This document shows, one piece after another, positions 13,331 through 41,607 of a stretch of 64,000 bases of DNA. Each line of letters begins with the position of its first letter. Position 1 is the first letter of the stretch. Source of the stretch: an uncultured Planctomycetales bacterium (GTDB taxonomy: Bacteria > Planctomycetota > Phycisphaerae > UBA1845 > Fen-1342); the NCBI GenBank assembly GCA_964553225.1, contig CAZKJT010000002.1, positions 389,908 through 453,907 of the forward strand, in the 5' to 3' direction. Below the pieces are notes generated by a model. It was given only the letters and a program-made list of their open reading frames with translations. It searched no databases and was not told the origin of the DNA. The position numbers and the translations under genes are program-made.

Positions 13331-13676
13331 GTACGACTCCTCCAGAGTGTGGGAGCGTCGAAGCGGCCTCCATCAGCCGCTTCACCTGGAACGAATGCAA
13401 TTCGGGTTCGTCTTGCGAACGACCCGGTCAGACATGGGCGCCAAGGCCGATCCGGGCCAGGGACCGATTTGGGGCCGCGGCGCACTCGCATTGCCGGCGC
13501 GTTGCGCGTGCGAACGGGATATCGGCATGCTCGGCGGGGTGGATTGAGCGAATTCCGACGCGCGATTACTGCCGCACGCGGATTCCGCGCGTCGGTCGCT
13601 GCGGCGCGCTCGAAGCCGCGCCGGCGGATGCCGCGCCCGAATCGACATTCATCCGCCGCGGCAGCAGAATATCGCC

Positions 13677-15146
13677 ATGATTTGCCGGAAGAACCCTGAT
13701 CCGAAAGTGCCGCGCGCAGCCAGACGTACGCGCCGGTCGAGTCGGCGACGCCGCGCGGCGCTGGCCGCGTGCCTGCTCGCGGGAACGCTCGCGGGATGCT
13801 CCCCCGAGGCGGCGGACCGTTCGCGCGACCCCCGCCCGAACGTTATCGTGATCGTTCTCGACACGGTTCGGGCCGACCACCTCGGTGCGTACGGCTACGC
13901 GCGTCAAACCACTCCGCGCATCGACGCGTTCGCGGCGGAGGCGGTGCGCTATGCTCGGGCCATGTCCACAGCGCCGTGGACCGTCCCGTCCCATGCTTCG
14001 CTGTTCACCGGGCTGTATCCCTTCGAGCACGGCGCGCATAGCTACGAAGTCGCGGACCCCGCCCAGAACAACGTCGGCCCGCTCGCACTCGAGCACCTGA
14101 CGCTGGCGGAGGCGCTGCTCGCCGAGGGATACGCGACCGGGGCGTTCGTCGCGAACGTGGCCTATCTGAGCCCGTGGACGCAACTGAACCAGGGGTTTCA
14201 GACCTATCACGCCGCGCTGGCGGACTCGACGACGCTGAACCGGGCCGTCCGCCCGTGGTTGGAACGCAATCGCAATCAGGCGTTTTTTCTGTTCATGAAT
14301 TACCTCGACGCGCACCGGCCGTACAACGCGCGGCCGCGCGAAGGACTGCTGGATCGGCCGGTCGCGCCGGACGGCGGCGCGCTGCTCGACCGGCTGATCG
14401 AGGCGACCCTGGCGGGCGTCGATCCGCCGCCGCCGGAGCTGGTGTCTGGGGTGATCGACCAGTACGACACGGCGCTGGCGAACCTGGACGAGCAGGTCGG
14501 CGTGCTGCTCGACTGGCTGCGCGAGCTGAATCTCTATCGCAACAGCGTCATCGTCATCACGTCCGACCACGGCGAGTATTTCGGCGAGCACGGTCTGGTC
14601 GAGCATTCCAAGGACGTGTATCAGCCGGCGCTGGCGATTCCGCTCATCGTCCGAGCGCCGGGAGACGCCGCGCCGCGCGTGGACGACACGCTCGTGTCGC
14701 TGGCGATGACGCCGTGGATCATCTGGCAGCACATGGCGGCGGACGTTCGTGCGCGGCGCGCGTCGAGCTTTCTGAATGCGCCGGGCGGCCCGGTGCTCGC
14801 CGAGAACTACTTCAGCCGCACCAAGGACGTGTTTGATCCGCGTTGGGGATCGCGTTTTCGGCGCGTCCGCACGGCGTGGTTCGAGTGGCCGTACAAGTTC
14901 ATCCGGTCGTCGGACGGCGCGCACGAGCTCTATGATCTTTCGCGCGATGCGGGGGAGACGAACAACCTGGTGGGTTCGGACGCGGGGCGGGCCGCCGCAA
15001 TGCAGGCCGCGCTCGACGCGTTCGAGCGCTCACGTCCCCGACGGGCGCCGCAGCGCATGGAGTCGGGCGCGCTGAGCGCCGAACAGCTTCGCGTGCTGGA
15101 GCAGCTCGGCTATGCCGGTTCGGCGCAGGATGGTGAACAGCCGTGA
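13677..15146 (+). CDS. sulfatase-like hydrolase/transferase (alkaline-phosphatase superfamily) lipoprotein. Thr sits where the formylglycine Cys/Ser nucleophile would be.
   Basis: Signal plus lipobox (LLAGTLAGCS). NVIVIVLDTVRADHLG metal-binding start. TVPSHASLFTGLYP aligns with the sulfatase CTPSRAALLTGRYP block but reads T-x-P-S-H. C-terminal ...ITSDHGE... Confidence 0.85.
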   Translation: MICRKNPDPKVPRAARRTRRSSRRRRAALAACLLAGTLAGCSPEAADRSRDPRPNVIVIVLDTVRADHLGAYGYARQTTPRIDAFAAEAVRYARAMSTAPWTVPSHASLFTGLYPFEHGAHSYEVADPAQNNVGPLALEHLTLAEALLAEGYATGAFVANVAYLSPWTQLNQGFQTYHAALADSTTLNRAVRPWLERNRNQAFFLFMNYLDAHRPYNARPREGLLDRPVAPDGGALLDRLIEATLAGVDPPPPELVSGVIDQYDTALANLDEQVGVLLDWLRELNLYRNSVIVITSDHGEYFGEHGLVEHSKDVYQPALAIPLIVRAPGDAAPRVDDTLVSLAMTPWIIWQHMAADVRARRASSFLNAPGGPVLAENYFSRTKDVFDPRWGSRFRRVRTAWFEWPYKFIRSSDGAHELYDLSRDAGETNNLVGSDAGRAAAMQAALDAFERSRPRRAPQRMESGALSAEQLRVLEQLGYAGSAQDGEQP

Positions 15147-15916
15147 CCGGGTCGAACGGCGACGGGCGAAATGCGACGTTTCGCGTGCTGACTTACAACA
15201 TTCACCGCGCGATCGGTTTGGATCGACGGTTCCTGCCGGACCGAGTGGCGGAGGTGCTGCGGCACCACGACGCCGACGTCGTGCTTCTTCAGGAAGTGGA
15301 TCGCGGCGCGCCGCGTTCGCAGCAGCTCGATCTGGCGTCGCACCTGGCGCGTCAGCTTGAGTATCGCTATCGCGCCGTCGGCATGAACGTCTATCTGCGC
15401 AAGGGCCGCTACGGCAACGCCACCCTGACGCGCTTCCCCATCGGGCGACAGCGGAACATCGACCTCTCAGTCCGGTGGATGATCCGTCGCGGCGCGCAGC
15501 ACACACGCATCCATGTCCCGTTCGACGGCCGATCCGTGGACGTGGACGTGTTCAACATGCACCTGGGCTTGTCGGCTCGCGAGCGAGAAAAGCAGGCTTG
15601 CCGGCTGCTGCAAAGTCCGGACGTGGCGCACTTGTCGGACCATTGCCGCAGCGTCATCGCCGGCGACACCAACGACTGGCGCGGGCTACTGACGCGGCGC
15701 TGGTTCGAGCCGGCCGGTTGGAGCTGCGCGACGGTGGACGCCGCGCGACGCCGCGCAATCCGCACGTTTCCGAGCTTCGCCCCGGCCGGCGCGCTGGATC
15801 GCATTTACTTCCGCGGCCGGCTCCGCCTCCTCTCGGTCCACCGCAGCCGATTGAGCGTCGCGCGCGTCGCCAGCGACCACCTTCCGGTCGTCGCGGAATT
15901 TGAGATTCTGCCTTGA
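15143..15916 (+). CDS. endonuclease/exonuclease/phosphatase (EEP) family protein
   Basis: FRVLTYNIHRAIG...DADVVLLQEVD...VIAGDTNDW...SDHLPVVAEF is an EEP-fold signature. The GTG start overlaps the upstream stop (GTGA), indicating translational coupling. Confidence 0.8.
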   Translation: MTGSNGDGRNATFRVLTYNIHRAIGLDRRFLPDRVAEVLRHHDADVVLLQEVDRGAPRSQQLDLASHLARQLEYRYRAVGMNVYLRKGRYGNATLTRFPIGRQRNIDLSVRWMIRRGAQHTRIHVPFDGRSVDVDVFNMHLGLSAREREKQACRLLQSPDVAHLSDHCRSVIAGDTNDWRGLLTRRWFEPAGWSCATVDAARRRAIRTFPSFAPAGALDRIYFRGRLRLLSVHRSRLSVARVASDHLPVVAEFEILP

Positions 15917-16001
15917 GGCGCCGCGAGAGCGGCTCGGAGGCGCTGGTGACGATCGGCCGGCGGCTTCGGGGACGCGCGCGATCGCGAGCGGGTTTACGCA
16001 G

Positions 16002-16071
16002 TCCCCGCTCCCTCACGGTCGCGGCTCGGAAAGGCGCGGCTCGGAAAGGCGCGGCTCGGACGGGCGCGGCA
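16002..16071. repeat. intergenic repeat element copy B plus 3 tandem 17-mers (gcggctcggaaaggcgc)
   Basis: tccccgctccctcacggtcgcggctcgg is 27/28 identical to copy A. It is followed by 3 tandem 17-nt units, with a degenerate unit upstream near 15930. Confidence 0.7.
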
Positions 16072-16200
16072 TGCGCTCCTGCGCTACCACGGCCGGCTTG
16101 GCGTCGATTCTCGCCAGCGCAGCGGGCCCGGCATATCATCGCTCGATCGTCGCGCGGTCGATTGCCGCAGCGACGCCGGCAGACCGGGCAGGAGCATCCG

Positions 16201-17526
16201 ATGCATTACCGGTTCGCACTGGCCGCGCTCGTCGCGGCCGCAGTGGATTGTCTGTCGCCGCGCCTCGTGAGCGCGCAGGATCGTCCGATCGCGTTCACGG
16301 GCGCGCGTGTGTTGCCGATCGACGCGGCGCCGATCGAGAGCGGCGTGCTGGTGATCCATCAGGGCAAGATCGTGGCGGTGGGACGCGCCGACGCGGTGCG
16401 GATCCCCGACGGCGCGGCGCACGTGGACGTCTCCGGGCGCTGGCTCATGCCGGGGCTGGTGGACACGCACAATCACATCGGCGGGATCGGCGGCGGCGAT
16501 TCGAGCGGGCCGATTCAGCCCGAGGCGCGCGTCATGGATTCGATCAATATCCATGATTCCGGATTCAAGCGTGCCCTCGCCGGCGGACTGACGACGCTGA
16601 ACCTCATGCCCGGATCGGGACATCTGCTCAGCGGACAGACCGTGTACGTGAAGCTGCGCGCCGGCGCCCGCACGATCGATGACCTGTTCATTCGCGACGC
16701 CGAGGGCCGGCCGACCGGCGGCATGAAGATGGCCAACGGGACGAACTCGATCGGCGCGCCGCCGTTTCCGGGGACGCGGGCGAAATCGGCCGCCCTCATG
16801 CGTCAGCAGCTTATCCGCGCGATGGAATACCGCGACAAGGTCCGCGCCGCCGGCGACGACGCATCCAAGCTGCCCGACCGCGACCTCGGCCTCGAAGCGC
16901 TGGTCGAAGTGCTCGACGGTCGCCGCGTCGTGCATCATCACACGCACCGGCACGACGACATCGTGACCGTGCTTCGCCTGGCGAAGGAGTTTGGCTTTCG
17001 AGTCGTGCTGCATCACGTGAGCGAGGGTTGGAAGGTGGCGGAGGAGATCGCCGAGGCGGGTGTGCCTTGCTCGATCATCCTGGTGGATTCGCCCGGCGGA
17101 AAGCTGGAGGCGGTAAACCTGCTGCTGAAGACCGGCGGGATTCTGGAGAGAGCCGGCGTGAAGGTGGCATATCACACCGACGACTGGATCACCGACTCTC
17201 GCCTGTTCTTTCGCATGGCGGCGCTCGGCGTGCGGGCGGGAATGTCGCGCGAGGCGGCGCTTCGTGCGCTGACGCTGGCGGGCGCGGAAATGCTCGATCT
17301 TGGAGAGCGGGTCGGCTCGCTGACGCCCGGCAAAGACGCGGATTTCCTGATTCTGGACGGCGACCCGTTCAGCGTCTACACGAAAGTCCAGGAAACATGG
17401 GTCGATGGGCGGCGCGTCTTCGATCGCTCGGATCCGAAAGACCGTCTCTACGCCGTCGGCGGCTTCGGGGCGTCGACCGACGTCGAGCCGTACTTCTGTT
17501 GCTTCGAACACGCGCAGGGAGACTAG
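16201..17526 (+). CDS. secreted amidohydrolase-family protein (metal-dependent hydrolase)
   Basis: Signal peptide MHYRFALAALVAAAVDC.... GLVDTHNHIGG (HxH metal site) and conserved ...HHTHRHDD... / ...HTDD... amidohydrolase residues. Confidence 0.85.
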   Translation: MHYRFALAALVAAAVDCLSPRLVSAQDRPIAFTGARVLPIDAAPIESGVLVIHQGKIVAVGRADAVRIPDGAAHVDVSGRWLMPGLVDTHNHIGGIGGGDSSGPIQPEARVMDSINIHDSGFKRALAGGLTTLNLMPGSGHLLSGQTVYVKLRAGARTIDDLFIRDAEGRPTGGMKMANGTNSIGAPPFPGTRAKSAALMRQQLIRAMEYRDKVRAAGDDASKLPDRDLGLEALVEVLDGRRVVHHHTHRHDDIVTVLRLAKEFGFRVVLHHVSEGWKVAEEIAEAGVPCSIILVDSPGGKLEAVNLLLKTGGILERAGVKVAYHTDDWITDSRLFFRMAALGVRAGMSREAALRALTLAGAEMLDLGERVGSLTPGKDADFLILDGDPFSVYTKVQETWVDGRRVFDRSDPKDRLYAVGGFGASTDVEPYFCCFEHAQGD

Positions 17527-17527
17527 C

Positions 17528-18736
17528 ATGCGCGCTTGCGGTGTGATTCTGGCGGTGATCGCGATCGCGCACGCGGCGCTCGCGCAGGTGGCGGTGCGCG
17601 CGGGCAAGGTGCACACGATGTCCGGTCCGCCGATCGACGACGGTGTGGTGGTGGTGACGGACGGAAAGATCGCCGCGGTGGGTCCGGCGGCGCAAGTGAT
17701 CGTCCCCGACGGCTATACCGTGCTCGAGGCGGCGGTCGTGACGCCCGGGCTGATCGACGCCCGCAGCACGGTCGGCCTGACGGGCATCTACAACCAGGCC
17801 CACGACCAGGATCAACTGGAGCGGTCGGCGCCGATCCAGCCGGAGCTGTCGGCGCTGGACGCCTACAACGCCGAGGAGCCGCTGATCGGGTGGGTGCGCG
17901 GCTTTGGCGTGACCACCCTGCACACTGGGCACGCGCCCGGCGAACTCATCAGCGGGCAGACGTTCATCGTCAAGACGCGGACCGGCGCCGTGCAGGACGC
18001 CGTGATTGTGCCGGCCGCGGCGGTCGCGGCGACTCTGGGGGAGAGCGCGCGCAAGGGCGACGGCAAGTCGCCCGGCACGCGCGCGAAGATGGTGTCGATG
18101 CTGCGGGCTGAGCTGATTCGCGCGCAGGAATACGCGTCGAAGCAGGCTCTGCCGGAAGAGGACAAGCGGCCGGCGCGCGACTTGCGGCTGGAGGCATTAG
18201 CGCGCGTACTTTCAGGCGAATTGCCGCTGATGGTTCACGCGCACCGTGCGCAAGACATCGCATCGGCGCTTCGCGTGGCGCGCGAGTTCAATCTGAAGCT
18301 CTGGCTGGACGGAGCGTCGGAAGCGTATCGCGTGCTGGAGGAGATCCAGGCGGCCGGCGTGCCCGTGATTGTGCACCCGATCATGCAGCGCCCGGTCGGC
18401 GAAGCCGAAAACATGAGCTGGGAGACGGCAGCGGCGCTTCGCGCGGTCGGGATTCCGATCGCGCTTCAGAGCGGCTTCGAGAGCTACGTGCCGAAGACCC
18501 GCGTGGTGCTGCTTGAAGCGGCGATCGCAGCCGCCAATGGTCTCACGTTCGACCAGGCGCTGGCGGCGATCACGATCGACGCGGCGCGGATTCTCGGCAT
18601 CGATCAGCGCGTCGGCAGCCTGGAAGTCGGCAAGGACGGCGACCTGGCTCTGTATGACGGAGATCCGTTTGAGTACACGACCCATTGCGTGGGCGTCGTC
18701 ATCGAGGGGCAAGTCGTCAGCGACGAAACACGCTAG
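17528..18736 (+). CDS. secreted amidohydrolase-family protein (paralogue of the upstream gene)
   Basis: Signal peptide. GLIDARSTVGL, ...MVHAHRAQD..., ...GDLALYDGDPF are similar to the preceding gene. The ATG is 2 nt after the upstream stop. Confidence 0.85.
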   Translation: MRACGVILAVIAIAHAALAQVAVRAGKVHTMSGPPIDDGVVVVTDGKIAAVGPAAQVIVPDGYTVLEAAVVTPGLIDARSTVGLTGIYNQAHDQDQLERSAPIQPELSALDAYNAEEPLIGWVRGFGVTTLHTGHAPGELISGQTFIVKTRTGAVQDAVIVPAAAVAATLGESARKGDGKSPGTRAKMVSMLRAELIRAQEYASKQALPEEDKRPARDLRLEALARVLSGELPLMVHAHRAQDIASALRVAREFNLKLWLDGASEAYRVLEEIQAAGVPVIVHPIMQRPVGEAENMSWETAAALRAVGIPIALQSGFESYVPKTRVVLLEAAIAAANGLTFDQALAAITIDAARILGIDQRVGSLEVGKDGDLALYDGDPFEYTTHCVGVVIEGQVVSDETR

Positions 18737-18760
18737 AACGCCTGGGCGGCGGATTTCGAC

Positions 18761-21058
18761 ATGACCACGCAGCGAGTTGCCGCGCTGTTCCGGGACGTCG
18801 CGGCCGGTCTGCACGCCGCACCCGATCAGCCCGCTTCCTGTTTTCGCTGGCTGGCGGAGCGGCTGCTCGATCCCCCGCGCGTCGCCGCCGCGCATCTGGT
18901 CGCCGCGCTGATCGAGCCGGCCGAGCGGCCCGGCGGGGCCGCGACGCGGGTCATCTCGGCCGCCGGAGGCGATGCGCCTGCGCCAGATTCGGCCGCGTTC
19001 CGCGCGTTCGGCCCGGCGTTCGCGATCGGCGATCTGCGCCCCGTCACGCTGAGCTGGTTCGCGGAAGGCGACGTCGTGGCGGGCGTGCCGATACCGGCCG
19101 GCGCTGCCGGGCTGCTCATCCGCGTCCGGCTCGAATACGCGATCGTGTGGACGCTGCTCATCGGCGAGCCGGCGCAGCTCGAGGACGAGCGGGCGCAAGA
19201 GCACGCGGCGATGCTCGAGTCGGTGCTGCCGGGCCTGACGGCGCATTTGAATCCGCGCGATCCAGAGGTCATTCGCCGCGCGTTTCTGTCCGCGCTGGTC
19301 AGCTACGCCCCGGTGCGTCCGGACGCCGATTTCGAGCACGTTTGCCGCGTGTGGCGGGCGGCGACGGGGGCCGATTTCTGCTGGCTGTGGCTGCACAACG
19401 AGCTGACCGGCAACTTCGAGCTGACGGCTTGCTCCACGTCGCGCAGCGGCAGTCGCCCGCTTCCGCCGCAGCGGCAGTCGCCGGGCGAAGGATCGGCCGG
19501 CCGCTACACCAGCCTGTCCGGGCGTCCGGTACGGATCGACGATGTGCGCGCCTGGTCGGCCGACTGGGAAGGGAAGCGATATCGCGTGTTGATGGCCGAC
19601 GCGCTGGTGCAGATGGGTTGTCCGGCGCTGCTGTGCGTGCCGATTCCGGCCCCCGGCGGGGGCGGCGGGCGGTCGAACCTGATCACGCTGCACGCGCGAA
19701 GTCCCGCCGCATTCATTCGGCACAGCGACCAGACGTTGATGACCAAGGGTCGCGCCACGGGCATGTCGATCGAGCTGATCAATCAGATCGAGCAGACGAG
19801 CATCCTGGTCGAGCTGAACCGGCTCGCACAGCGGTTTCTGTCGCAGCCGACCGGGCGTCCGGCGCATCTCCGCGCGCAGTATCTGAAAGCCCTGATCGAG
19901 CTGATTCGGAATCGGCTTCGCGTGTCGTGCGTGTCGGTGTTTCAGCGCGTGGGACCGGAGCCGGAAGTGCGGTGCATCGGCACCAGCGGGTTGACGGACG
20001 TAAAAACCGGGCGGGCGATCGCGGAGGATCGCCTGGCGACCGCGCGGTACCAGAGCGGCGAACGGAACACCGGCACTTGCTTTCAGATGGCGAGGCCGAT
20101 CATCAAAACGCACGACGTCGACGTGAAGTATCGCGAGACGCGCAAGCGAGACGGCAGCGCCGGCGAGAACCCGGCGCTGTACGTCCCCATCCCCGACCCG
20201 CTGAACGAGTATGACGACGGGCGCGCCGCCGGCGTGATCCGCTGTTTCGACCATGTTTCGCCGATGTTCCCGGATACGCTGTCAAACTTCGACGGTACCG
20301 AGGTCGAGAACCTGATCTTCATCGCCGAGCAGGTCGGGCCGGTCCTGCGCACGTTCGAGAACCGATTGCAGCGCGAGCGGACCATCAGCGTGCTCAAGCA
20401 TGATCTGTATGCGCCGCTGTCGATGATGCGCGACACGATCGAATGCCTGCTTCAGGAGCAGGGCGAAAACAAGCCGCTGAACCCGTTCCACCTGCGCGAT
20501 CTTCAAGTTTCAAACCGCGTCACCAGCAGCCTGGTCGAGCAGCTCGATCCGGATCCCGGCGCGGTCCGGGAAGTGAACGCCGTGCCGACCTATCTCGAAG
20601 GCGAGATCGTCGCGCGGTTGTGCGACATGATGGGGCACCTGGCGTGGGGCCAGAAGCGCATCCGCATCCGCTATGACGGCTTCCGCGACATTCCGAGGCT
20701 GCGCATCGACCCGGTGCTGGTCGAGCGCGCCATCTACAACCTCATCACCAACGCGATCAAGTACGCTGCCCCGAGCACGCTCATCGAAGTGCTCGGGCAG
20801 GCCCTGCCGGACGGCACGGGCTACGTCGTTCATGTCACGAATGAGGGCATCGGGATCGACGCCGCCGACCGGCCGCATCTCTTCCGGGCCGGGTTCCGAT
20901 CGCGCCGCGCAGCGCAGGTGGCGATGGGCGCGGGGCTCGGTCTGTCGATCGCCCAGGCCGCGATGCAGGCTGTCGGCGGAGAGATTCGCGTCACGCGGCT
21001 CAATAACCCGACCACCTTCACGTTATACTTCCCCGCGCACCTGAGCGCGACGGGATAG
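18761..21058 (+). CDS. cytoplasmic GAF-domain sensor histidine kinase
   Basis: No TM segments. A long N-terminal sensory region, then HisKA (VLKHDLYAPLSMM) and HATPase_c (IYNLITNAIKYA...NEGIGI...GAGLGLSIA). Confidence 0.85.
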   Translation: MTTQRVAALFRDVAAGLHAAPDQPASCFRWLAERLLDPPRVAAAHLVAALIEPAERPGGAATRVISAAGGDAPAPDSAAFRAFGPAFAIGDLRPVTLSWFAEGDVVAGVPIPAGAAGLLIRVRLEYAIVWTLLIGEPAQLEDERAQEHAAMLESVLPGLTAHLNPRDPEVIRRAFLSALVSYAPVRPDADFEHVCRVWRAATGADFCWLWLHNELTGNFELTACSTSRSGSRPLPPQRQSPGEGSAGRYTSLSGRPVRIDDVRAWSADWEGKRYRVLMADALVQMGCPALLCVPIPAPGGGGGRSNLITLHARSPAAFIRHSDQTLMTKGRATGMSIELINQIEQTSILVELNRLAQRFLSQPTGRPAHLRAQYLKALIELIRNRLRVSCVSVFQRVGPEPEVRCIGTSGLTDVKTGRAIAEDRLATARYQSGERNTGTCFQMARPIIKTHDVDVKYRETRKRDGSAGENPALYVPIPDPLNEYDDGRAAGVIRCFDHVSPMFPDTLSNFDGTEVENLIFIAEQVGPVLRTFENRLQRERTISVLKHDLYAPLSMMRDTIECLLQEQGENKPLNPFHLRDLQVSNRVTSSLVEQLDPDPGAVREVNAVPTYLEGEIVARLCDMMGHLAWGQKRIRIRYDGFRDIPRLRIDPVLVERAIYNLITNAIKYAAPSTLIEVLGQALPDGTGYVVHVTNEGIGIDAADRPHLFRAGFRSRRAAQVAMGAGLGLSIAQAAMQAVGGEIRVTRLNNPTTFTLYFPAHLSATG

Positions 21059-21080: not shown

Positions 21081-21548
21081 ATGCCCGGGAGGACAGTGCG
21101 CGTGAGCGACCAGAAGCCCGTGATTCTCTTCGTCGATGACGAGCCGGCGTTTGCACAGCGCTACCTGGAGGAGCTGCGCAAGCAGTTCGAGGTGATCTAC
21201 GTCGCCGATGCCAGCGAAGCGCTCGAAGTCATGCGCCAGCGCCTGGGCGAGATTCGCGCCCTGGTCATCGACGTCATGATGCCCACGCCCGAAGGCGTCA
21301 GCGACACCGACACGGACGACGGCTTCGAGACCGGCTTGTGGCTGCTTCAGCAGTTCCGCGGGTACCCGGCCGGCGATTGGCGCATGGGCGTGATCGTGCT
21401 GACCAACCGCCGCACCGACCTCATCCGCGACGGGCTTCGTCGCCGGGGCATTGACGAGCAGGGCGTGCAGATTTACCGCAAGATCGACATGCCGGCGTTC
21501 GCGCTGCCGCGCCGCGTCAAGGGGTTGATCGAGTCGGTGAAACGCTGA
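21081..21548 (+). CDS. single-domain response regulator (CheY-like receiver)
   Basis: ILFVDDEPAF...LVIDVMMP...VIVLTN... carries the receiver acidic pocket. Starts 23 nt after the kinase stop. An alternative GTG start at 21102 has a better-spaced GGGAGGA. Confidence 0.8.
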   Translation: MPGRTVRVSDQKPVILFVDDEPAFAQRYLEELRKQFEVIYVADASEALEVMRQRLGEIRALVIDVMMPTPEGVSDTDTDDGFETGLWLLQQFRGYPAGDWRMGVIVLTNRRTDLIRDGLRRRGIDEQGVQIYRKIDMPAFALPRRVKGLIESVKR

Positions 21549-24354
21549 TCGAGCGCGCGCCGTCCGTTCCCGGAGCGCCCGCAACCACGACCTTGCCGCG
21601 GGCAGACATCGTGCCGACCGAGACCGTCACCGTGTACTCGCCGGGCGAAACCTGCGGCGGCGTCCAGCCATCAGGCGTGGTGATCCGGTCATGCTCCTCG
21701 CACATCAGGTCCCATGCGACGCGATTGATCCCCGTTTGCCCGCCGCCGCTGAGCGAGCGAATCGTGCGGCCGCCCGCATCCGCGATCGAGATCGACACCG
21801 ACTCGTCGGATCGCTCGCGCAGCCAGTAGGTCAGCACGGCGCCGCTTGGCGGGTTCTTCGCGCGAAACAGCCGGTCCGTCCAGAGACCGGCGTATTCCAG
21901 AAAGAACTTCGGGCGGGCGGGCGGCGTCTCGAACAGATGAAGCTCGGACGACATCACCGCGTCGGTCAGCTCACCGAGAGGCCCGGCATCGTCCAGGATG
22001 TAGATCGAACGGCCGTGCGTTCCGACGATGAGATCGAGCTCACGCGGATGCTGGCGGATGTCGTCGATCGGGACGGTCGGCAGCGAATCGCCGTTCATCC
22101 GGACCCAGCGCCGCCCGCGATCGACGGAAACGTACAGCCCGCGCTCCATGCCGACGTACAGCACCGACGGATTGCGAACGTCTTCGCGCACCACCTTTAC
22201 GATGTCATCCGCCGGCAGGGGCGCGTCCGACCCGACGCCGACCAGCGAGACCCAGGATATGCCGCCGTCGGTCGTCATCCACAAGTGCGGCGCGAACTCG
22301 TTGGTTCGATGTCCGTCGAGCGCGACATATGCCGTGTTCAGATCGTGGTGCGACGCCTCGATGCGCGAGACGTATCGTCCGCCCGCTTCCGGAGGCGTCA
22401 CGTTGGTCCAGCTTGCGCCGTCGTCCCGTGTCACGTGAACGAGGCCGTCGTCCGAGCCCGTCCACAGCAAGCCGCGCTCCCGCGACGACTCGGCCAGCGA
22501 GACGATCGTGCAGTGCGTTTCGGCTTCGGAGCCGACCGTTTGCACGCGATCCACGTTGTTCGTCGTCAGGTCCGGGCTGATCCGTTGCCACTGATCGCCG
22601 CGCTCCGTCAGACGGAACAGCGCGTTGCCGCCGAGATAGAGCACGCCCTCGGCGTGCGCGGACACGAGAAACGGGCTGTTCCAGTTGAACCGGTGCCGCG
22701 GCTGTCCTTCCTTCGGCCCCGGCTGAATGTGGCGCACGCGTCCGGTGTCGAGGTGCACGCGATTCAGCTCGCCGCCTTGCCATTCGGCATAGACGATATT
22801 CGAGTCGTGCGGGTCGAATGCCATGTGGAAGCCGTCGCCCCAGCCGACCAGCCGCCAGTCCGCGTTGGTGATGCCTGTTTCGCCGGCCGGATCGTGCCCG
22901 CCGCTGCTCAGCAGAGTCTCGCTCGGGCCGATCCATGTCCCGTTGTCCTGCAAGCCGCCGCCGATTCGATACGGCTCGCTCAGGTCGCAGGCCACGTTGT
23001 AGAACTGCCCGACGGCGATATGGTTCAGGAAATCCCACGTCGCGCCGCGGTCGAACGATTGATAAATCCCGCCGTCGGTCCCCAGCAGCAGGTGGTCGCT
23101 GTCGGCCAGGTCGATGTCGAGCGCGTGCAGGTCTACGTGCGGGGTTCGCGCGCCGCCGGCTCGGAGCGTCCGCCCGCCGTCGTCGGACACATACAGCACC
23201 CAGCCCAGCAGGTAGACGCGCTGGTCGTCGTGCGGATCGACGCGCACTTTCGAGAAGTAGAACGGGCGCGGGTTGTAGTCGTTCACGCGCGTCCACGAAT
23301 CGCCGCCGTCCTCGCTGCGAAACAGCCCGCCGCTGCGCTGTCGATCGTCGAATGGCTCGACACCCGCTCCGCCGAAGTCCGACTCGACGATGGCGTACAG
23401 CACGCGCGGGTTCGCGCGAAAGACATCCAGTCCGATGCGTCCGGTCTGCGGCGGAAGCCCACGGGTCAATTTCGTCCAGTGCTCGCCTGCGTCCGTGCTG
23501 CGATAAATGCCGCCCTGGGGACCGCCGCTGCGAAAACTCCACGGCGTTCGCAGCCGGCTGTACATCGCGGCATAGACGACGTCCGGATTCAGGGGATCGA
23601 CGATCACGTCGCACGCGCCGGTCTCGGCGTCCACGTGCAGCGCCGCCCGCCACGTCTTCCCGCCGTCGATCGTCTTGTAAACGCCGCGCTCCGGGTTCGG
23701 CCCCCACAGCCGCCCCAGCGCCGCGACGTAGCAGACGTCCGGGTCGCGCGGATCCACCGCGATCGCCGGGATTTCGTGCGTAGCCTCCAGCCCGAGATGG
23801 GTGAACGATCCGCCGCCATCGGTCGAGCGATAGACGCCGTGCCCCCACGAGGAGCTGTTTCGGCCGTTCCCTTCGCCGGTGCCCACCCACACGATTTTCC
23901 CGCGACCACGGTCCTCGGCCAGAGGCTGCGAACCCGCCGGACCGGAAGCGGGAGAAGACTGCGGCGCACCCGCATTCTCCACGCTCCATCCGGCCCAACT
24001 GGGCGGCGCGTCGACCACCGCGACCGCGCCGATCGACGACGTGACTTCGTTGTCGAACACCGGCGCAAGCGTCGTGCCGCGGTTGGTCGTCTTCCACAGC
24101 CCGCCCGTGGCGAAACCGACGAAAAAGCACTTCGAATCGCCGGGCGCGAAGCAGACATCTGCGACGCGCCCGCCCATGTTCGCCGGACCCACGCTGCGCC
24201 ACGCCAGCTCTTTCAAATCCGCCGACGCGAGCGTGCGCGGTGGCGAGGACGCCTGAGTCGCGACAGCCGGCACGCGCTCTTCTCCGGCCGCGAGTCCAGA
24301 CAGCGCGACCGCGCTCAGTGTCATCGCCGCAACGCCGTGTCCTCGATGCATCAT
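21517..24354 (-). CDS. secreted BNR/Asp-box repeat glycoside-hydrolase-like protein (sortilin/VPS10-like, GH74-like)
   Basis: Signal peptide, then at least 9 Asp-box motifs (STDGGGSF, TIDGGKTW, STDAGEHW, SEDGGDSW, SDDGGRT, SFDRGATW, TRDDGASW, TTDGGISW, SVDRGRRW). Its 3' end overlaps the response-regulator 3' end by 32 nt (convergent). Confidence 0.8.
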   Translation of the reverse strand: MMHRGHGVAAMTLSAVALSGLAAGEERVPAVATQASSPPRTLASADLKELAWRSVGPANMGGRVADVCFAPGDSKCFFVGFATGGLWKTTNRGTTLAPVFDNEVTSSIGAVAVVDAPPSWAGWSVENAGAPQSSPASGPAGSQPLAEDRGRGKIVWVGTGEGNGRNSSSWGHGVYRSTDGGGSFTHLGLEATHEIPAIAVDPRDPDVCYVAALGRLWGPNPERGVYKTIDGGKTWRAALHVDAETGACDVIVDPLNPDVVYAAMYSRLRTPWSFRSGGPQGGIYRSTDAGEHWTKLTRGLPPQTGRIGLDVFRANPRVLYAIVESDFGGAGVEPFDDRQRSGGLFRSEDGGDSWTRVNDYNPRPFYFSKVRVDPHDDQRVYLLGWVLYVSDDGGRTLRAGGARTPHVDLHALDIDLADSDHLLLGTDGGIYQSFDRGATWDFLNHIAVGQFYNVACDLSEPYRIGGGLQDNGTWIGPSETLLSSGGHDPAGETGITNADWRLVGWGDGFHMAFDPHDSNIVYAEWQGGELNRVHLDTGRVRHIQPGPKEGQPRHRFNWNSPFLVSAHAEGVLYLGGNALFRLTERGDQWQRISPDLTTNNVDRVQTVGSEAETHCTIVSLAESSRERGLLWTGSDDGLVHVTRDDGASWTNVTPPEAGGRYVSRIEASHHDLNTAYVALDGHRTNEFAPHLWMTTDGGISWVSLVGVGSDAPLPADDIVKVVREDVRNPSVLYVGMERGLYVSVDRGRRWVRMNGDSLPTVPIDDIRQHPRELDLIVGTHGRSIYILDDAGPLGELTDAVMSSELHLFETPPARPKFFLEYAGLWTDRLFRAKNPPSGAVLTYWLRERSDESVSISIADAGGRTIRSLSGGGQTGINRVAWDLMCEEHDRITTPDGWTPPQVSPGEYTVTVSVGTMSARGKVVVAGAPGTDGARSISVSPTRSTP

Positions 24355-24470
24355 TGAGTCCTCGCGGAATGGACCGGGAATCCGTGCGAGCTGCTCAGTG
24401 TAGCGGCGTGCGCGGACTCGGCCCACGCGAGCGTGTGCAGAGCGTTCGACGCGCAACGCCGCCGACGCGC

Positions 24471-25343
24471 TCAGCGGTGAGCGACGCCGCTCAACACGCC
24501 CCGCGCGATCCCGGCCAGCTCGGTCATGGAAGAGCCGGATTTCACCGCAGGACTCGCTGGGATCGCCAGGGTCGGGAGTCGTCGGCCTCCCAGCACCAGC
24601 ACCGCATCCTGAAGATGCGGCAGCAGCGCGCGCACCTCAGCGGCGACGTCGATGGCGTTTTCGGTGGCCGAGACCGAGAGCCAAACCAGCCGCGGGCGGT
24701 TCTCCTCGATCGCGGCGATCAGCGCGGCCGACGGCGAGTTCGCCCCCAGATTCAAAGCGTGAAAGCCGATCGACGCCAGCACGGTCGATGCGCAGCTCGA
24801 GGCGATGGCGTATGGATCACCGGCGGGCGATCCCCCGAGCGCAACGGGCGCGTCCGCAGGCGTCGTGAACATCTGCCGGAGCTGATGAATCGCCTGCGCG
24901 CAGAGATCCGTGGCGCGGTGCTCGTAGAAGATGCCGCTGGCGCTGTGCTTCCACAACTCGCCGATGCGCGACATCGCCTCCTGGATCGGACCGTCAACGA
25001 TCGCCTCGACTGACTCGCCCGAAAGGTACATCGCCAGGAGCAGCCCGCGCGCCTCAGCCGCCTGCCCGGTGCGCAGGTACTGAAAGAACCGCTCCGTCTC
25101 GCTGCGCCCGGTCGGGATTTCGCGCCGCACGGCCTCGATGTCGGCCAATCCCAGGATGTCCGGCCGGATGATCGGCGCTTTGGACTCGCGTATGAAGCGG
25201 ATGGCGTCCCAGATCGCGATGCGTCGGTGCCCGCCGGCGGTTTTGGCGGCCGTCACCGTTCCGTCGTCGACCCAGCGCTTGACAGTCGATTCACTCACGC
25301 CGATGACCGCGCCGAGCTCCTTCGGCGAGAGAATGGGTTTCAA
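24471..25343 (-). CDS. MerR/excisionase-type HTH regulator fused to a cobalamin-binding-like domain (CarH/LitR-like architecture)
   Basis: N-terminus LSPKELGAVIGVSESTVKRWVDDG (HTH_17/MerR type). The C-terminal Rossmann-like domain reads ...GDPYAIASS...VWLSVS..., where B12-binding domains have DxHxxG. His is replaced by Tyr. Confidence 0.65.
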   Translation of the reverse strand: MKPILSPKELGAVIGVSESTVKRWVDDGTVTAAKTAGGHRRIAIWDAIRFIRESKAPIIRPDILGLADIEAVRREIPTGRSETERFFQYLRTGQAAEARGLLLAMYLSGESVEAIVDGPIQEAMSRIGELWKHSASGIFYEHRATDLCAQAIHQLRQMFTTPADAPVALGGSPAGDPYAIASSCASTVLASIGFHALNLGANSPSAALIAAIEENRPRLVWLSVSATENAIDVAAEVRALLPHLQDAVLVLGGRRLPTLAIPASPAVKSGSSMTELAGIARGVLSGVAHR

Positions 25344-25678
25344 ACGGCACCTCTTTTGCGTACCGCGGTTTGACGGCGCAGACGGACGCTGCGGCGCTGC
25401 GATGGAGATTGCGCGACAAATGATCTTAACATCATGTAAATAAGCACTTTACAGCCTGTATCTCCGTCGCCGGCACGCCGGCAATCCGACGGCCTGGCGT
25501 CGCTCGCACGATCGTATCGGAAAAATCGGTAGATGTGAACGAAAAAACATTCGCGGCCCGTGCGAGCGGTCGACGCGGTCGAGGCCGTCCGTCGCGCCGC
25601 TTCGCACAATGGACCGGTGGTTGTACGCTGTCCGGTCGCCGAGGAGCCGACGTCAGCGAATCGTTAGAGGCGCATGGA

Positions 25679-26254
25679 ATGACAACGCTCGCTCGTGTCG
25701 CGATTCGATTGGCCACGCCGGTCGATGCCCGAACGCTCGCCCCATTCGCCGAGAGAGTCTTCCGGGCGACATTCGAACGCGATCCGCATCACCGGCCGGA
25801 CGACATGGCGATCTACACGGCCGAGCATTTCTCCGTCGCGCGGATGGAGCGTGAGCTGTCCGACGAAGCGGCGCCGTATCTGCTGGCGGAGTTGGACGGC
25901 GCGCTATTGGGCTACGTGAAGCTCGGCGAAGATCCACCGCCGGCGTGCGTCCGCGCGCGGCGCGCGATGGAGCTGATCCGTCTCTACGTGGACCCGAGCG
26001 TGCACGGTCAGGGCGTAGCGCAGGCGCTGATGTCCGCGAGCATGCGCTACGCCGTCGAGCGCGGCTGCGACGTGATGTGGCTGGGTGTGTGGCGGAACAA
26101 CCACCGCGCACGGCGGTTCTACGAGAAATGCGGATTCCGCCACGTGGGCGAGCACCCGTTTCAATTCGGCAGCGCGCTTCAGGCGGATGAGGTGTACTTC
26201 CGCTCGGTCGATGAATTGTCCACCGGTGCTGTCGCGGGCGCGTCGGCGTCCTGA
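25679..26254 (+). CDS. GNAT-family N-acetyltransferase
   Basis: LIRLYVDPSVHGQGVAQALM...RFYEKCGFRHVG is the acetyl-CoA binding motif A/B. Start set at MTTLARV inside the track ORF. Confidence 0.8.
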   Translation: MTTLARVAIRLATPVDARTLAPFAERVFRATFERDPHHRPDDMAIYTAEHFSVARMERELSDEAAPYLLAELDGALLGYVKLGEDPPPACVRARRAMELIRLYVDPSVHGQGVAQALMSASMRYAVERGCDVMWLGVWRNNHRARRFYEKCGFRHVGEHPFQFGSALQADEVYFRSVDELSTGAVAGASAS

Positions 26255-28860
26255 TTGTCTGAATCGCGGCGCGGTTCGGGCGATTCGCTCAGCACGTTTC
26301 CGAGCGACACTTGTTGCGCGATCCGGTTCAATTGAGCGTCGGGGATGGACGGCGGCTGAGAAAGATCGGCTGCGGCCAGCGCCTCGGCCAGCTCTTCAAC
26401 GCTCGTCTCGCGTTCGGTGCGGGCGAGCAACAGCCGCGCAAGCTGATAGCGAAACAGGAACGAGCGAACGGTCCGCGGGCCGACGCGGCGGGCCGCGCCG
26501 TCGGGACCGGCGCCGTTCGGTCGTGGGGCATAGCCGGTCGCGTGGATCAACTGCTCGGTGACATTGCGCTCCTCGTCCGGTGAGAAGTGGATCGCGCGGT
26601 CGAACCGGACTCTGCGAGCGCGCCTCTTCCGCGCGGCTTCATCGGGACTGCCTGCTTCGACGGCGGAAGGTCGCGGTGTCGAGCCTGCAACCCGTTCCGC
26701 CGGCTCATCGCGCGGACGCGCGGCGGAGGCGCGAACCGGCGGTGGCGGCGTGGCTGCGCCGCCGGGCGACTGAGGCGCGTTTGATGCGGAGTTCGCGGGC
26801 TTCGATTCGTCGTCCGCGGTGGATTCGCGCAGGCGTTCAAAGAACCGCTTGGCGACGTCGCGCACGTCGCGCTCGCGGAGGCGAGGCAGCCGCAGGTACG
26901 CCACGAAAAGCTTTTCAACGTTTTCGATGAACAGTTGCCGCGAAGTTCGGTGGTCGCGGAGCGCGGCGTCTCCCCGGTCGCAATACTTCTGCAGGATGGC
27001 CGCGGCCAGCGAAGACTCATCGACCAGCATCGCGACTTGCAGGCGATCGCGAACGGCGGCGCTCTCCAGGAACTGCTTCAGGCCCTCCATGACTTCGAGC
27101 ATCGCCTCTGGCCGGCAGCGATCCAGATCGTCGACCACGAGAAGCACCCGTCGCGGCGGCGCCGGGAATAAGCGCGCCCGCCAGCCGGCCGCGCCCGGCA
27201 GCGCGGCGTACTTCGCGAGAAGCCAGAAGCCGGCGGTGAACGCGAGCCAGGTGATCGCGAGCAACACGCTGATGCCGAGAAACGCAGCGTCGGCGGACAG
27301 CGCGTTCTCCGGATTGGATGCCGGCACAGCAGGGAGTTCGACGCCAAGGGACGCAGCGTCGCCGGATAGCGCCCCGCTGAGCAGCGGCGATAGCGCAGCC
27401 GCTCCGAGCATGCTTGCGCCGAAGTAGCACACGGTGGCCAAGGGGCCAAAGGCGTGGCGGAGCGCACGTTCGGCCGCGGTTGCCGGAGTCCGTGTGGGTG
27501 GAGCCTTCGGCGGCGGTGGTCGCCAGCCGACAAGCAGCGCTTCGAGGTCACGGCCGATGACCGCTTGCAGTCCCAGCGGCTGATCGTGCCGGGCCATCGA
27601 CCAGAGGTACGAAAGCGGTGATTGCGCCAACGTGCGCCCGGCGCGGGCCACGCGCGATAGGTAGGTCAACCCCCCGATCCCGAGCACCGCTGCAAACGGT
27701 TTGGCCCACTGGGACCACAGCGAGACGGACGCCACACCTACCGCAAAGACGAGCAGAGCGCCGATTAGCGTCAGAATCCCGTGGCGCGCGATGCCGGCCC
27801 GAATAACGATCGGCAGAGAGGCCCGCGCGCCGCTGCGTGTGGCGCGTTCGGCGATCGTCTCGTAGAGGTGCGCCCAGAGCGTAGGCGTCTGCGGATAGGC
27901 CCAGGCGCTGAAGTTGACCACCGCGTATTCGCCTTCGGCCTCCAGTTCGCGGCGAACCTTGTTCATGAGGAACGTCTTGCCGCGTCCCCAATGACCCAGC
28001 AGTCCGAAGCAGAAGTCATCGCCGCCCCGGCGGAACAGGTGGGCGATCGCCTGCGCATACCGGTCGGCGTTGAGCGTGGACTCGTCCTCGCTTGCATCGC
28101 GTTCCCAGGTCTCGCGTCCGCCGACGACGCGCCCTGTCGGGGGCGTTGAGGATTCGCGCGGCTCGGTGGCGTTCGGCTTGACCGTGACGGGCGCCTCTGA
28201 GGAAGTCTGCGCTTTCATGCCGTCGGGCGCGTTCGCGCTCCCTCGCTTGGATTGCCGCAATCGCTCGGGCGTATCGGAAGTCGCGTCGCCAGGCGGCGCG
28301 CTGACATGGGCGGATCCGGTATCGAAAAATGCGTCGCGAATTCGGTACGCACTACGAGATTCGAGGACGTCGGCCGGGACGATTGTGATGTTGTTGTCGG
28401 TCAGATCGAGCATCGACAAGCGAGGAAGGCGCTCGATGACGGCGCGAGCGCCCGCGTCGCCAATTTGGTTGTTGCTCAGCGACAGAATCCGCAGCGCGGA
28501 CAGGCGCTGAGCGATCGCGATTGCGCCGTCGTCGTCGACTTCATCGCTGAGCAGTTTCAGCTCCGTCAACTTCGGCAAACGCTCCGCGATCTCACGCGCG
28601 CCCCGGCTGCCGATGTGATGTCCCGCGAGGGACAGCGATTCGAGCCTATCCAGCTCGAACAATTCGCCGGGCAGGCCTTCAAGGGAACCGTTAACGCGGA
28701 ACACGTGCGCCCGTTCGTTCTGTGAGATGTCGCGAGTCGAGCCGGCGTAGCGATCACTGACCAGCGCCAGCGCGGTCCACTTCTCCTCCCGTGCGCGGCG
28801 CACGACGTCAGGAATCGCGTCGCGGTGAACCACCTCAAATTGTTGTGCCATGTCTGACAT
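26179..28860 (-). CDS. KAP-family P-loop NTPase with N-terminal leucine-rich-repeat (RI-type) domain, TM helices inserted in the NTPase core, and a long disordered Ala/Pro/Arg-rich C-terminal tail
   Basis: LRR units (LESLSLAGHHIGSRGAREIAERLPKLTELKLL..LRILSLSNNQIGDAGARAVIERLPRLSMLDLTDNNIT). Walker A GLLGHWGRGKTFLMNKV (the GxWGxGKT form typical of KAP). At least two hydrophobic helices between Walker A and Walker B (GILTLIGALLVFAVGVASVSLW; FLGISVLLAITWLAFTAGFWLLA). Walker B VLLVVDDLDRC. Start at MSDMAQQ, 27 nt after the xylB stop. Confidence 0.8.
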   Translation of the reverse strand: MSDMAQQFEVVHRDAIPDVVRRAREEKWTALALVSDRYAGSTRDISQNERAHVFRVNGSLEGLPGELFELDRLESLSLAGHHIGSRGAREIAERLPKLTELKLLSDEVDDDGAIAIAQRLSALRILSLSNNQIGDAGARAVIERLPRLSMLDLTDNNITIVPADVLESRSAYRIRDAFFDTGSAHVSAPPGDATSDTPERLRQSKRGSANAPDGMKAQTSSEAPVTVKPNATEPRESSTPPTGRVVGGRETWERDASEDESTLNADRYAQAIAHLFRRGGDDFCFGLLGHWGRGKTFLMNKVRRELEAEGEYAVVNFSAWAYPQTPTLWAHLYETIAERATRSGARASLPIVIRAGIARHGILTLIGALLVFAVGVASVSLWSQWAKPFAAVLGIGGLTYLSRVARAGRTLAQSPLSYLWSMARHDQPLGLQAVIGRDLEALLVGWRPPPPKAPPTRTPATAAERALRHAFGPLATVCYFGASMLGAAALSPLLSGALSGDAASLGVELPAVPASNPENALSADAAFLGISVLLAITWLAFTAGFWLLAKYAALPGAAGWRARLFPAPPRRVLLVVDDLDRCRPEAMLEVMEGLKQFLESAAVRDRLQVAMLVDESSLAAAILQKYCDRGDAALRDHRTSRQLFIENVEKLFVAYLRLPRLRERDVRDVAKRFFERLRESTADDESKPANSASNAPQSPGGAATPPPPVRASAARPRDEPAERVAGSTPRPSAVEAGSPDEAARKRRARRVRFDRAIHFSPDEERNVTEQLIHATGYAPRPNGAGPDGAARRVGPRTVRSFLFRYQLARLLLARTERETSVEELAEALAAADLSQPPSIPDAQLNRIAQQVSLGNVLSESPEPRRDSDNQDADAPATAPVDNSSTERKYTSSA

Positions 28861-41535: not shown

Positions 41536-41607
41536 GCCGATGTAGCTCAACGGTAGAGCACCGCTTTCGTAAAGCGGGGGTTGAGGGTTCAAATCCCTCC
41601 ATCGGCT
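41536..41607 (+). tRNA. tRNA-Thr (anticodon CGT)
   Basis: Manual cloverleaf: acceptor GCCGATG/CATCGGC, D-arm GCTC-AACGGTA-GAGC, anticodon stem CCGCT/AGCGG with loop TTCGTAA (CGT), variable GGGTT, T-arm GAGGG-TTCAAAT-CCCTC, discriminator T. 72 nt, no encoded CCA. Confidence 0.85.

Follow-up and report, generated by a model that had tools for sequence, protein, structure and literature searches.

A leucine-rich repeat protein on a membrane-inserted KAP NTPase core in an uncultured planctomycete

The gene and its product

The gene in this report was found in a 64,000-nucleotide stretch of DNA, here called the window, from an uncultured Planctomycetales bacterium (assembly GCA_964553225.1, contig CAZKJT010000002.1, positions 389,908 to 453,907 of the forward strand). 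Its product joins an N-terminal leucine-rich repeat (LRR) domain to a P-loop NTPase of the KAP family, and we refer to it as the LRR-KAP gene. It occupies 26179..28860 of the window as a single intact open reading frame (ORF) on the minus strand, starting at an ATG at 28860 and ending in a stop codon at 26179-26181, and the ORF list and translation give a product of 893 amino acids. An alternative ATG at 28851, three codons later, yields the 890-residue protein present in the databases (P0001; P and L numbers are our handles for proteins and loci). We considered whether the reading frame might be spurious and ruled this out: its coding pattern is the usual one for the genome, and every invariant of the family is kept, i.e., all 24 invariant columns of a 53-member family alignment. 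The gene is real and intact, and it encodes a membrane-anchored KAP ATPase with an N-terminal LRR of the immune-receptor type.

Domain organization

All parts described in this section are encoded on the minus strand. Residues 1-175 (28336..28860) make up a predicted cytoplasmic LRR solenoid. Three Pfam LRR profiles score above their cutoffs (LRR_6, 34.9 bits against 23.4; LRR_8, 33.5 against 27; LRR_4, 33.0 against 27), and four canonical units resembling those of ribonuclease inhibitor (RI) follow one another at 28345-28644 with a 25-residue period, beginning at residues 73, 98, 123, and 148 in the register LxxLxLxxNxIGxxGAxxIAxxL. No tandem repeat was found beneath this region at the DNA level. 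Residues 1-185 were also modeled with AlphaFold2 (AF2), with the LRR segments found in the homolog search as the alignment. The model has a predicted local distance difference test score (pLDDT) of 87.1 and a predicted template modeling score of 0.85; it contains seven strand-helix units, which indicates that the whole N terminus is one solenoid. The best Foldseek matches of this model are the LRRs of NLRP1, NLRP3, and NOD2 (E values of 3e-6 to 4e-4), with NLRC4 also among them, followed by ribonuclease inhibitor (~1e-3) and CARMIL. The profiles, the repeat register, and the alpha/beta solenoid fold all place the domain in the RI-like class, as a first-pass annotation made from the sequence alone had proposed. 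In animal nucleotide-binding LRR receptors (NLRs), LRRs of this class are the ligand sensors.

A flexible linker rich in Ala, Ser, Thr, and Pro follows at residues 176-255 (28096..28335), with pLDDT values of 23 to 40, and leads into the NTPase. KAP P-loop NTPases are distinguished by two or four transmembrane (TM) helices inserted between the Walker A and Walker B motifs. The Pfam KAP_NTPase profile matches the planctomycetal protein with an E value of 2.1e-20 and 73.6 bits (cutoff, 20) in two stretches, one on either side of such an insert. The N-terminal half of the domain, residues 256-356 (27793..28095; Pfam stretch 267-346, pLDDT 80 to 89), carries Walker A, GHWGRGKT, at 27973-27996, and the C-terminal half, residues 550-686 (26803..27213), carries Walker B, VLLVVDDLDRC, at 27115-27147. 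Both motifs proved intact when retranslated and are invariant across the family, as are W291, G292, R293, G294, and K295. The profile score, the Walker motifs, and the four inserted helices described below make the protein a member of the KAP family, and its predicted fold resembles those of solved structures annotated as KAP.

The insert between the Walker motifs is 286 residues long and, by hydropathy and the AF2 model, holds four hydrophobic helices at approximately residues 357-381, 387-409, 470-492, and 519-549; where at least two had been noted before, the helices are indeed there, and the count is corrected to four. They are arranged as two hairpins. The first, TM1 plus TM2 (residues 357-409, 27634..27792), reaches a hydropathy peak of 2.45 and has a 5-residue outer loop, with AF2 helices at 362-381 and 387-413; the second, TM3 plus TM4 (residues 470-549, 27214..27453), is seen in the hydropathy profile and in AF2 helices at 473-490 and 517-551, and its outer loop spans residues 493-518. 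The cytoplasmic helical segment that lies between the hairpins (residues 410-447, 27520..27633, RHxxxLGLQAxIGxDLxALLxGW) ranks with the best-conserved regions of the protein, with L429, G430, L431, D438, and W446 invariant and pLDDT values of 80 to 87. Lysines and arginines number 4, 7, and 4 on the three predicted cytoplasmic loops and are absent from the two outer loops; the outer loop at 493-518, which varies in length and sequence across the family, has three acidic residues. Because of this distribution of charge, both halves of the NTPase, the LRR, and the C terminus are predicted to be cytoplasmic (N-in/C-in).

The remainder of the protein had been described as a 250-residue disordered tail rich in Ala, Pro, and Arg, a description that does not hold for most of its length. 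Only two segments are of low complexity or low confidence: a spacer rich in Ala, Pro, Arg, and Ser at residues 687-737 (26650..26802; pLDDT 28 to 42), which varies in length within the family, and an unconserved acidic tail at residues 859-893 (26182..26286; pLDDT below 40), which is missing in most homologs and whose coding sequence overlaps the 3' end of the adjacent GNAT gene. Between them, residues 738-858 (26287..26649) form a conserved helical module, FSxDEE ... GPRxVRSFxFRYQLARLLL ... QV, whose helices have pLDDT values of 73 to 88; P795, R796, Y805, and L807 are invariant, and the module is kept in 151 of 151 aligned family members. The full-length AF2 model has a pLDDT of 61.8 overall, with values of 70 to 90 over most of residues 262-686 and in the helices of the module at 738-858.

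The family of four-helix KAP proteins

A word-indexed search of 5.8 billion proteins returned 26 matches to the LRR-KAP protein, only one of which, a metagenomic protein of 1046 residues with 46% identity (P0002), shares its architecture. The KAP core itself is not rare: a profile of 11 family members, read against 1.84 billion representatives, gave 17,584 matches at an E value of 1e-3 or better and 839 at 1e-30 or better, and the best 150 of them cover the entire core, all with E values below 1e-117. What varies is the region ahead of the core, which spans from 0 to ~1000 residues; the N termini of the 146 members with at least 40 residues there sort into 50 unrelated clusters.

A Pfam census of 151 members matched KAP_NTPase in every one and found a varied set of N-terminal domains, led by SLFN_AlbA_2 in 19 members and HTH_3 in 4. 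TIR_2, MIR, and DUF2513 were each found in 3, tetratricopeptide repeats (TPR) in 2 to 4, and Peptidase_C14 in 2; PIN_4, PNP_UDP_1, SIR2_2, CHAT, EAD1, Mrr_N, and pentapeptide repeats occur in 1 member each. LRRs were found in 2, our protein and P0002. This list is the vocabulary of NTPase-centered conflict systems. Some of the heads are binders of nucleic acids or proteins (Schlafen/AlbA_2, HTH, Mrr_N, TPR, pentapeptide repeats, and LRR), and others are immune effectors of the classic kind (TIR, SIR2, caspase/CHAT, PIN, PNP, and EAD1). The largest N-terminal class, 60 of the 146 members, has no Pfam match at 1e-5 and shows repeated motifs resembling Clp_N, such as GTRHLLLALLE (P0006, P0010, P0011, and P0028-P0030, among others; L028:8369-11917), which may represent an undescribed Clp_N-like sensor head. 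The Clp_N domain proper (PF02861) is precomputed on P0325, P0327, P0332, and P0347, which are relatives of a second group of LRR-KAP proteins, in Bacteroidota, described below.

The two closest members of the family, our protein and P0002, are unevenly similar along their length: identity is 79% in the N-terminal half of the NTPase and 82% in the cytoplasmic loop, compared to 49% in the LRR, 31% in the linker, and 23% in the cap at the N terminus. The repeats of P0002 are roughly threefold more numerous, and several of them are nearly identical to one another. As judged from these sequences, the LRR diverges faster than the core, which would be consistent with sensor-like evolution.

Genomic neighborhoods of family members

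Several members of the four-helix clade that lack LRRs sit beside genes of conflict systems. P0006 is flanked by Abi_2, a restriction-modification (RM) enzyme of the Eco57I type, NERD, toxin-antitoxin genes of the SecB/MqsA type, and a set of Prok-E2, JAB, and ThiF genes; P0011 lies upstream of three giant helicases, of which one carries an MZB domain; P0007 adjoins nucleases; and P0008, a TPR-KAP protein, is near a STAND-like protein with the architecture AAA_16-TPR-SpoIIE (STAND, signal transduction ATPases with numerous domains). P0010 and P0029, on the other hand, sit in ordinary DNA. The surroundings of P0006 amount to a dense defense island (L005:2574-18049), in which Prok-E2_E, Prok-JAB/ThiF, and BubE make up a ubiquitin-like conjugation set and which also holds HipA. 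Near P0008 there are, in addition, two ORFs of great length, 1054 and 1333 residues, with no Pfam match, both of which recur in contig L004; these and the STAND-like protein are located at L003:3304-6645 and 13603-20775.

In a census of 39 metagenome loci, the ORFs closest to the KAP gene, two per flank and 132 altogether, gave matches to 215 PADLOC families at an E value of 1e-5 or better. This figure counts families rather than ORFs, the ORF calls behind it are crude, and the loci belong to a mixture of KAP clades, all of which lessen its weight as support for a defense role. Among the strong matches are RM systems of types IIG and I (E values of 0 to 1e-284), PDC-S68 (0), DpdE (1e-139), PDC-S19 (1e-116), and MkoA of Mokosh (1e-60), and Pfam adds Eco57I, Type_ISP, and helicases. 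As a control, 45 genes of the window match no more than 7 PADLOC families, compared to 215 for the 132 neighboring ORFs, and their best E value is 5e-22. Swapped heads and strong defense neighbors together support the view that the four-helix KAP clade is built around the NTPase of a conflict system. The defense role proposed at the outset is thus upheld in part: the clade resembles a conflict-system NTPase, and its members without LRRs have strong matches next door, but the loci that do bear LRRs, six of the six that we examined, are all in housekeeping DNA.

The planctomycetal gene is one of those six. On the same strand, an FGGY-family kinase gene, xylB, ends 26 nucleotides upstream of its ATG, and no terminator-like site was found in the gap. 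The GNAT gene (25535-26254, plus strand) is convergent with it, and their 3' ends overlap by 76 nucleotides. This agrees with the earlier description of a gene standing alone among housekeeping genes. P0002 lies downstream of purL and polyhydroxyalkanoate (PHA) genes, and no neighbor is common to P0002 and our protein; with no conserved neighbor between the two closest members, the LRR-KAP gene appears to act alone.

Its closeness to xylB could suggest cotranscription in a xylose/xylulose operon, where the protein might, for instance, regulate uptake at the membrane. We judge such a tie to sugar metabolism very improbable because the neighbor of P0002 is a different one, no other examined family member adjoins an FGGY kinase, and none of the domains is known to be connected with the metabolism of sugars.

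A second clade in Bacteroidota and the recurrence of the fusion

Two more LRR-KAP proteins, L069 and L074, whose LRRs are of the typical kind with 22 to 24 residues, came out of the metagenome scan, and a search with L069 found ~30 clusters, mostly unnamed, that combine LRR and KAP domains in public databases; one of these is Niastella caeni FAM09_25140, which carries the UniRef label “KAP NTPase domain-containing protein.” The proteins of this Bacteroidota clade have a single TM hairpin, i.e., two TM helices. Three of them, L069:9431-12160, L090:10001-12526 (N. caeni GCA_004834005.1, STFF01000009.1), and L092:10001-12796, share their synteny, with the N. caeni protein 58% and the L092 protein 36% identical to that of L069. 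The upstream side reads NIF3 - Zn_ribbon_9 - recN-like - fabI-like - DUF2795 - ABC_tran - LRR-KAP, and the other side continues from LRR-KAP with Cob_adeno_trans - ABC_tran - gatC - trpS - dNK. A fourth member, L091, sits amid ABC transporters and cytochromes. A site that is fixed in three genomes down to 36% identity gives the look of vertical inheritance, and the gene of this clade looks like a core gene rather than a defense gene.

On a rough neighbor-joining tree of KAP cores, the LRR forms fall in at least three separate places, and our protein and P0002 nest among four-helix members without LRRs. Given this scattered placement, the fusion of LRR to KAP appears to be recurrent, with at least three origins. 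The first-pass annotation had regarded an LRR-KAP fusion as a system not yet characterized. Such fusions are uncharacterized, and a literature search, outside of which lay the 2004 KAP paper, returned no description of an LRR-KAP protein; they are nonetheless not unique, having been deposited in public databases before, and all examined loci are in stable chromosomal DNA. KAP NTPases with fused variable modules are a known kind in conflict systems, and within the literature searched, it is the combination of an NLR-class LRR with a four-helix KAP core, in the absence of an enzymatic effector, that is undescribed.

Comparison with known systems

Membership in several described systems was considered and rejected. 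The PADLOC model of PifA is matched with an E value of 3.9e-10 and 36.9 bits, with residues 265-343 aligned to only 79 of its 720 positions (25-103). The model of QatA (NF041923) reaches 38.9 bits against a cutoff of 600, and the neighbors are xylB and GNAT, with no QueC or TatD. For PDC-S20, the best match has an E value of 5.4e-11 and ~40 bits, and its best stretch covers ~40 of 458 model positions. The STAND or NLR class was set aside too, since NACHT (E value of 0.11) and NPHP3_N (0.033) both fall below the Pfam cutoff, which leaves a likeness at the level of the fold. A sequence profile search of the PDB gave nothing significant, with an NB-ARC protein at an E value of 0.059.

By description, the overall layout matches that of the eukaryotic signaling scaffold Kidins220/ARMS, in which 11 ankyrin repeats precede four TM segments in the middle of the protein and both tails are in the cytoplasm (PMC5593494). 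Both proteins have an N-terminal repeat array, a KAP domain with four TM segments, and cytoplasmic termini. They differ in that the repeats of Kidins220 are ankyrin repeats rather than LRRs, and it has a long C-terminal tail with SAM and PDZ-ligand elements in place of the short GPRxVRSFxFRYQLAR helical module of our protein.

Antiphage activity of KAP NTPases has been shown experimentally only recently. Single-gene KAP NTPases with TM helices and a variable fused region, EF_KAP and three metagenomic proteins, block phages and protect Enterococcus; Walker B and the fused region are required, and the defense in Enterococcus faecalis is reportedly not abortive infection (PMC13552941). By description, the planctomycetal protein resembles EF_KAP as a single-gene KAP with TM helices and a variable, noncatalytic region. 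In the EF_KAP group, however, whose hosts are Firmicutes, that region is C-terminal and has no recognizable fold, and EF_KAP has one TM helix at its N terminus and a second in the domain, compared to four in the insert and an N-terminal LRR here. PifA is likewise a KAP-family NTPase active at the membrane on phage infection, where it brings about membrane depolarization and nucleotide leakage upon infection by T7; it has no TM helices (PMC13001434) and no LRR and is borne on the F plasmid, whereas our gene is chromosomal, in core DNA. More broadly, KAP can replace STAND in conflict systems with effector-associated domains (EADs) or death domains (PMC8195603) and likewise in antigen sensors diversified by diversity-generating retroelements (PMC10907252).

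Two further comparisons concern the engine. The closest solved relative of the KAP core is the ring-forming RdrA of RADAR, which differs in being soluble, without a TM insert, and in having a partner deaminase, RdrB; identity is 9 to 15%, and a literature search on RdrA together with KAP returned nothing. Tmn is, by description, similar to our protein: it too is the product of a single gene, a P-loop NTPase embedded in the membrane by TM helices inside the NTPase domain. It forms a decameric ring, senses the T2 protein RIIB, and exports Mg2+, with plasmolysis as the result, but it belongs to a distinct P-loop family (YobI), has two TM helices, and is reported to lack a recognizable accessory sensor domain (PMC13001434). 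The Pfam assignment of our protein is KAP_NTPase, not YobI.

The earlier description of the layout as an inverted NLR or STAND arrangement is correct as to the order, a repeat domain joined to an NTPase with the LRR at the N terminus, but not as to the NTPase, which is KAP rather than NACHT or NB-ARC. The logic of a repeat sensor with an oligomerizing NTPase is shared with these receptors, and the LRR fold is nearest to those of NLRP1, NLRP3, and NOD2. The differences from NLRP proteins, NOD2, plant resistosomes, and bacterial Avs/bNACHT proteins are, besides the NTPase, the inverted order, the embedding of the NTPase in the membrane, and the lack of a separate effector domain. The Bacteroidota LRR-KAP proteins, for their part, have an N-terminal LRR, a KAP domain interrupted by TM helices, and a related motif at the C terminus, yet they represent an independent fusion with 22- to 24-residue LRRs, two TM helices, ~28% identity to our protein, and a fixed site.

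A model for the protein and its alternatives

We propose that the protein is a membrane NTPase that forms a ring and works as a ligand-gated switch, probably in immunity, a reading in which our confidence is evenly balanced. The switch would consist of one polypeptide, depend on NTP, and be anchored in the inner membrane. The NLR-type LRR would bind a cytoplasmic protein ligand, most plausibly a protein of a phage or another invader, and binding would free the NTPase to bind or hydrolyze NTP and to form a ring, as RdrA does. Since the protein has no enzymatic effector, the membrane-embedded part would be the output, a bundle of 4 × n TM helices that might perturb membrane integrity or ion balance; by analogy, such an output would resemble the membrane lesions of PifA on T7 infection and the Mg2+ export of Tmn. 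The assignment of sensing to the LRR and of output to the NTPase, as first put forward, is tentative; paralogs hold enzymatic effectors in the same N-terminal slot.

A defense role for this gene is plausible, and the claim for it rests on the association at the level of the clade; the context of the gene itself counts neither for nor against defense. The locus is in neither a defense island nor a mobile element, and at the level of the clade such placement is found for some members.

A number of observations weigh against the immune switch. Locally, the 45 genes of the window are core housekeeping genes by Pfam (purA, the gene for the E1 subunit of pyruvate dehydrogenase, uppS, cdsA, lepA, and those for ribosomal protein L21, PCMT, and TerC among them), with no strong PADLOC match. 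A repeat search around the LRR-KAP gene found chance matches of GC-rich sequence, with no flanking repeats or target-site duplication; the sole Rfam match, a tRNA-Thr at 41536-41607, is 12 kb from the gene; and G+C at third codon positions (GC3) is just slightly low, 0.77 compared to 0.82-0.86 in the neighbors (overall G+C, 0.668; second codon positions, 0.53). No PADLOC or NCBIfam defense model matches the protein beyond its P-loop motifs. In the wider family, LRR heads occur in only 2 of the 151 members of the four-helix clade, a motif scan of 2.9 million viral contigs found no family member, and 72,556 plasmids gave only 2 distant Rhizobium protein matches (at the DNA level, the plasmid collection gave trivial matches to xylB). 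Homologs embedded in housekeeping contexts had been named beforehand as evidence that would tell against defense, and this is partly what we see: all six LRR-KAP loci are so placed, and the retention of one syntenic site across deep divergence in Bacteroidota is atypical for defense genes. As to mechanism, we infer both the ring assembly and the role of the membrane part as effector, and membrane killing as the output is not a given, because the E. faecalis KAP defense is reportedly nonabortive.

In the strongest alternative, the protein is a bacterial counterpart of Kidins220/ARMS, a housekeeping membrane scaffold or signaling NTPase without a role against invaders; the repeats would recruit host partners, and the KAP NTPase would regulate the assembly or disassembly of a membrane-associated complex. 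We regard this alternative, including the part that it gives to the NTPase, as possible but on the unlikely side. The shared layout with Kidins220 (PMC5593494), the placement of six out of six LRR-KAP loci in housekeeping DNA, the common synteny of the three Bacteroidota genes, and the absence of the family from the viral contigs speak in its favor. The syntenic clade is, however, a separate and independent fusion, with two TM helices and another LRR length, and the clade to which our protein belongs is rich in fusions to immune effectors and in defense-island neighbors. Furthermore, our protein and P0002 have no common neighbors, their LRRs diverge much faster than the core, and LRR plus KAP is very sparse in the four-helix clade, with 2 clusters in the word-indexed search of 5.8 billion proteins and 2 members among the best 151 representatives, a distribution unlike that of a conserved housekeeping gene.

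The adaptor alternative reverses the parts, so that the LRR would recruit a partner or effector in trans and sensing would fall to the C-terminal module or to the outer TM loops. The paralogs offer some grounds for this, since their N-terminal slot holds TIR, SIR2, caspase, PIN, or PNP effectors or the EAD1 adaptor, EAD-fused KAP NTPases are part of multigene conflict systems (PMC8195603), and the outer loop at 493-518 is variable. Nonetheless, there is no conserved partner gene beside our protein or P0002, the 64-kb window shows no second LRR protein or effector, and the LRR is of the class that senses ligands in animal NLRs, so that we consider this alternative improbable.

A more specific version of the immune switch, which we offer as a tentative picture and doubt more than the switch itself, is a membrane-embedded counterpart of the NLRs. 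An LRR of the NLRP type would sense a phage protein and trigger a KAP ring whose own TM helices would be the effector of death or dormancy, a built-in “resistosome,” and prokaryotes would then have, besides STAND, a second family of pattern recognition receptors in the four-helix clade, this one anchored at the membrane.

The four-helix clade is a tractable case in either event, with a conserved core engine whose head is swapped in the manner of NLR and STAND effector and sensor modules. If it is immune, the planctomycetal protein would be a receptor of the NLR kind that uses another NTPase, one integrated in the membrane, and its membrane part would be the likely effector. The stable housekeeping contexts raise the opposite possibility that some bacterial KAP proteins may be scaffolds like Kidins220, an outcome that would bear on the origin of the animal protein.

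Other features of the window

The weak PADLOC matches in the window include mad2 (5e-22), RT-Protease_XI (1e-14), and SduA and LmuA (both ~1e-7), and there is one Pfam match to RVT_3 (RNase H-like) in its gene set; these are probably generic cross-matches of kinase/ATPase and trypsin protease domains.

The source organism appears to be poorly sampled. Among 5.8 billion proteins, the nearest homolog of the xylB product is 62% identical, with the matches in metagenome-assembled genomes of Phycisphaerae, Planctomycetota, and Armatimonadota. The locus was missed by a protein scan of a collection in which each GTDB species is represented by one genome, the scan giving only a 35-residue match to Walker B in Pseudomonas jinjuensis (L002), and no close relative suited to a comparison of synteny or insertion was found.

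The GNAT gene (GC3 of 0.76) and the LRR-KAP gene have the lowest GC3 of the neighborhood, which hints weakly that the pair is of a different age from the surrounding genes. Just past the GNAT gene, at 24471-25343 on the minus strand, is a gene for a CarH-like light/B12 regulator with a MerR-type helix-turn-helix fused to B12-binding domains, and adjoining it, at 21517-24456 on the same strand, is one for a 979-residue protein with Sortilin-Vps10/BNR repeats.

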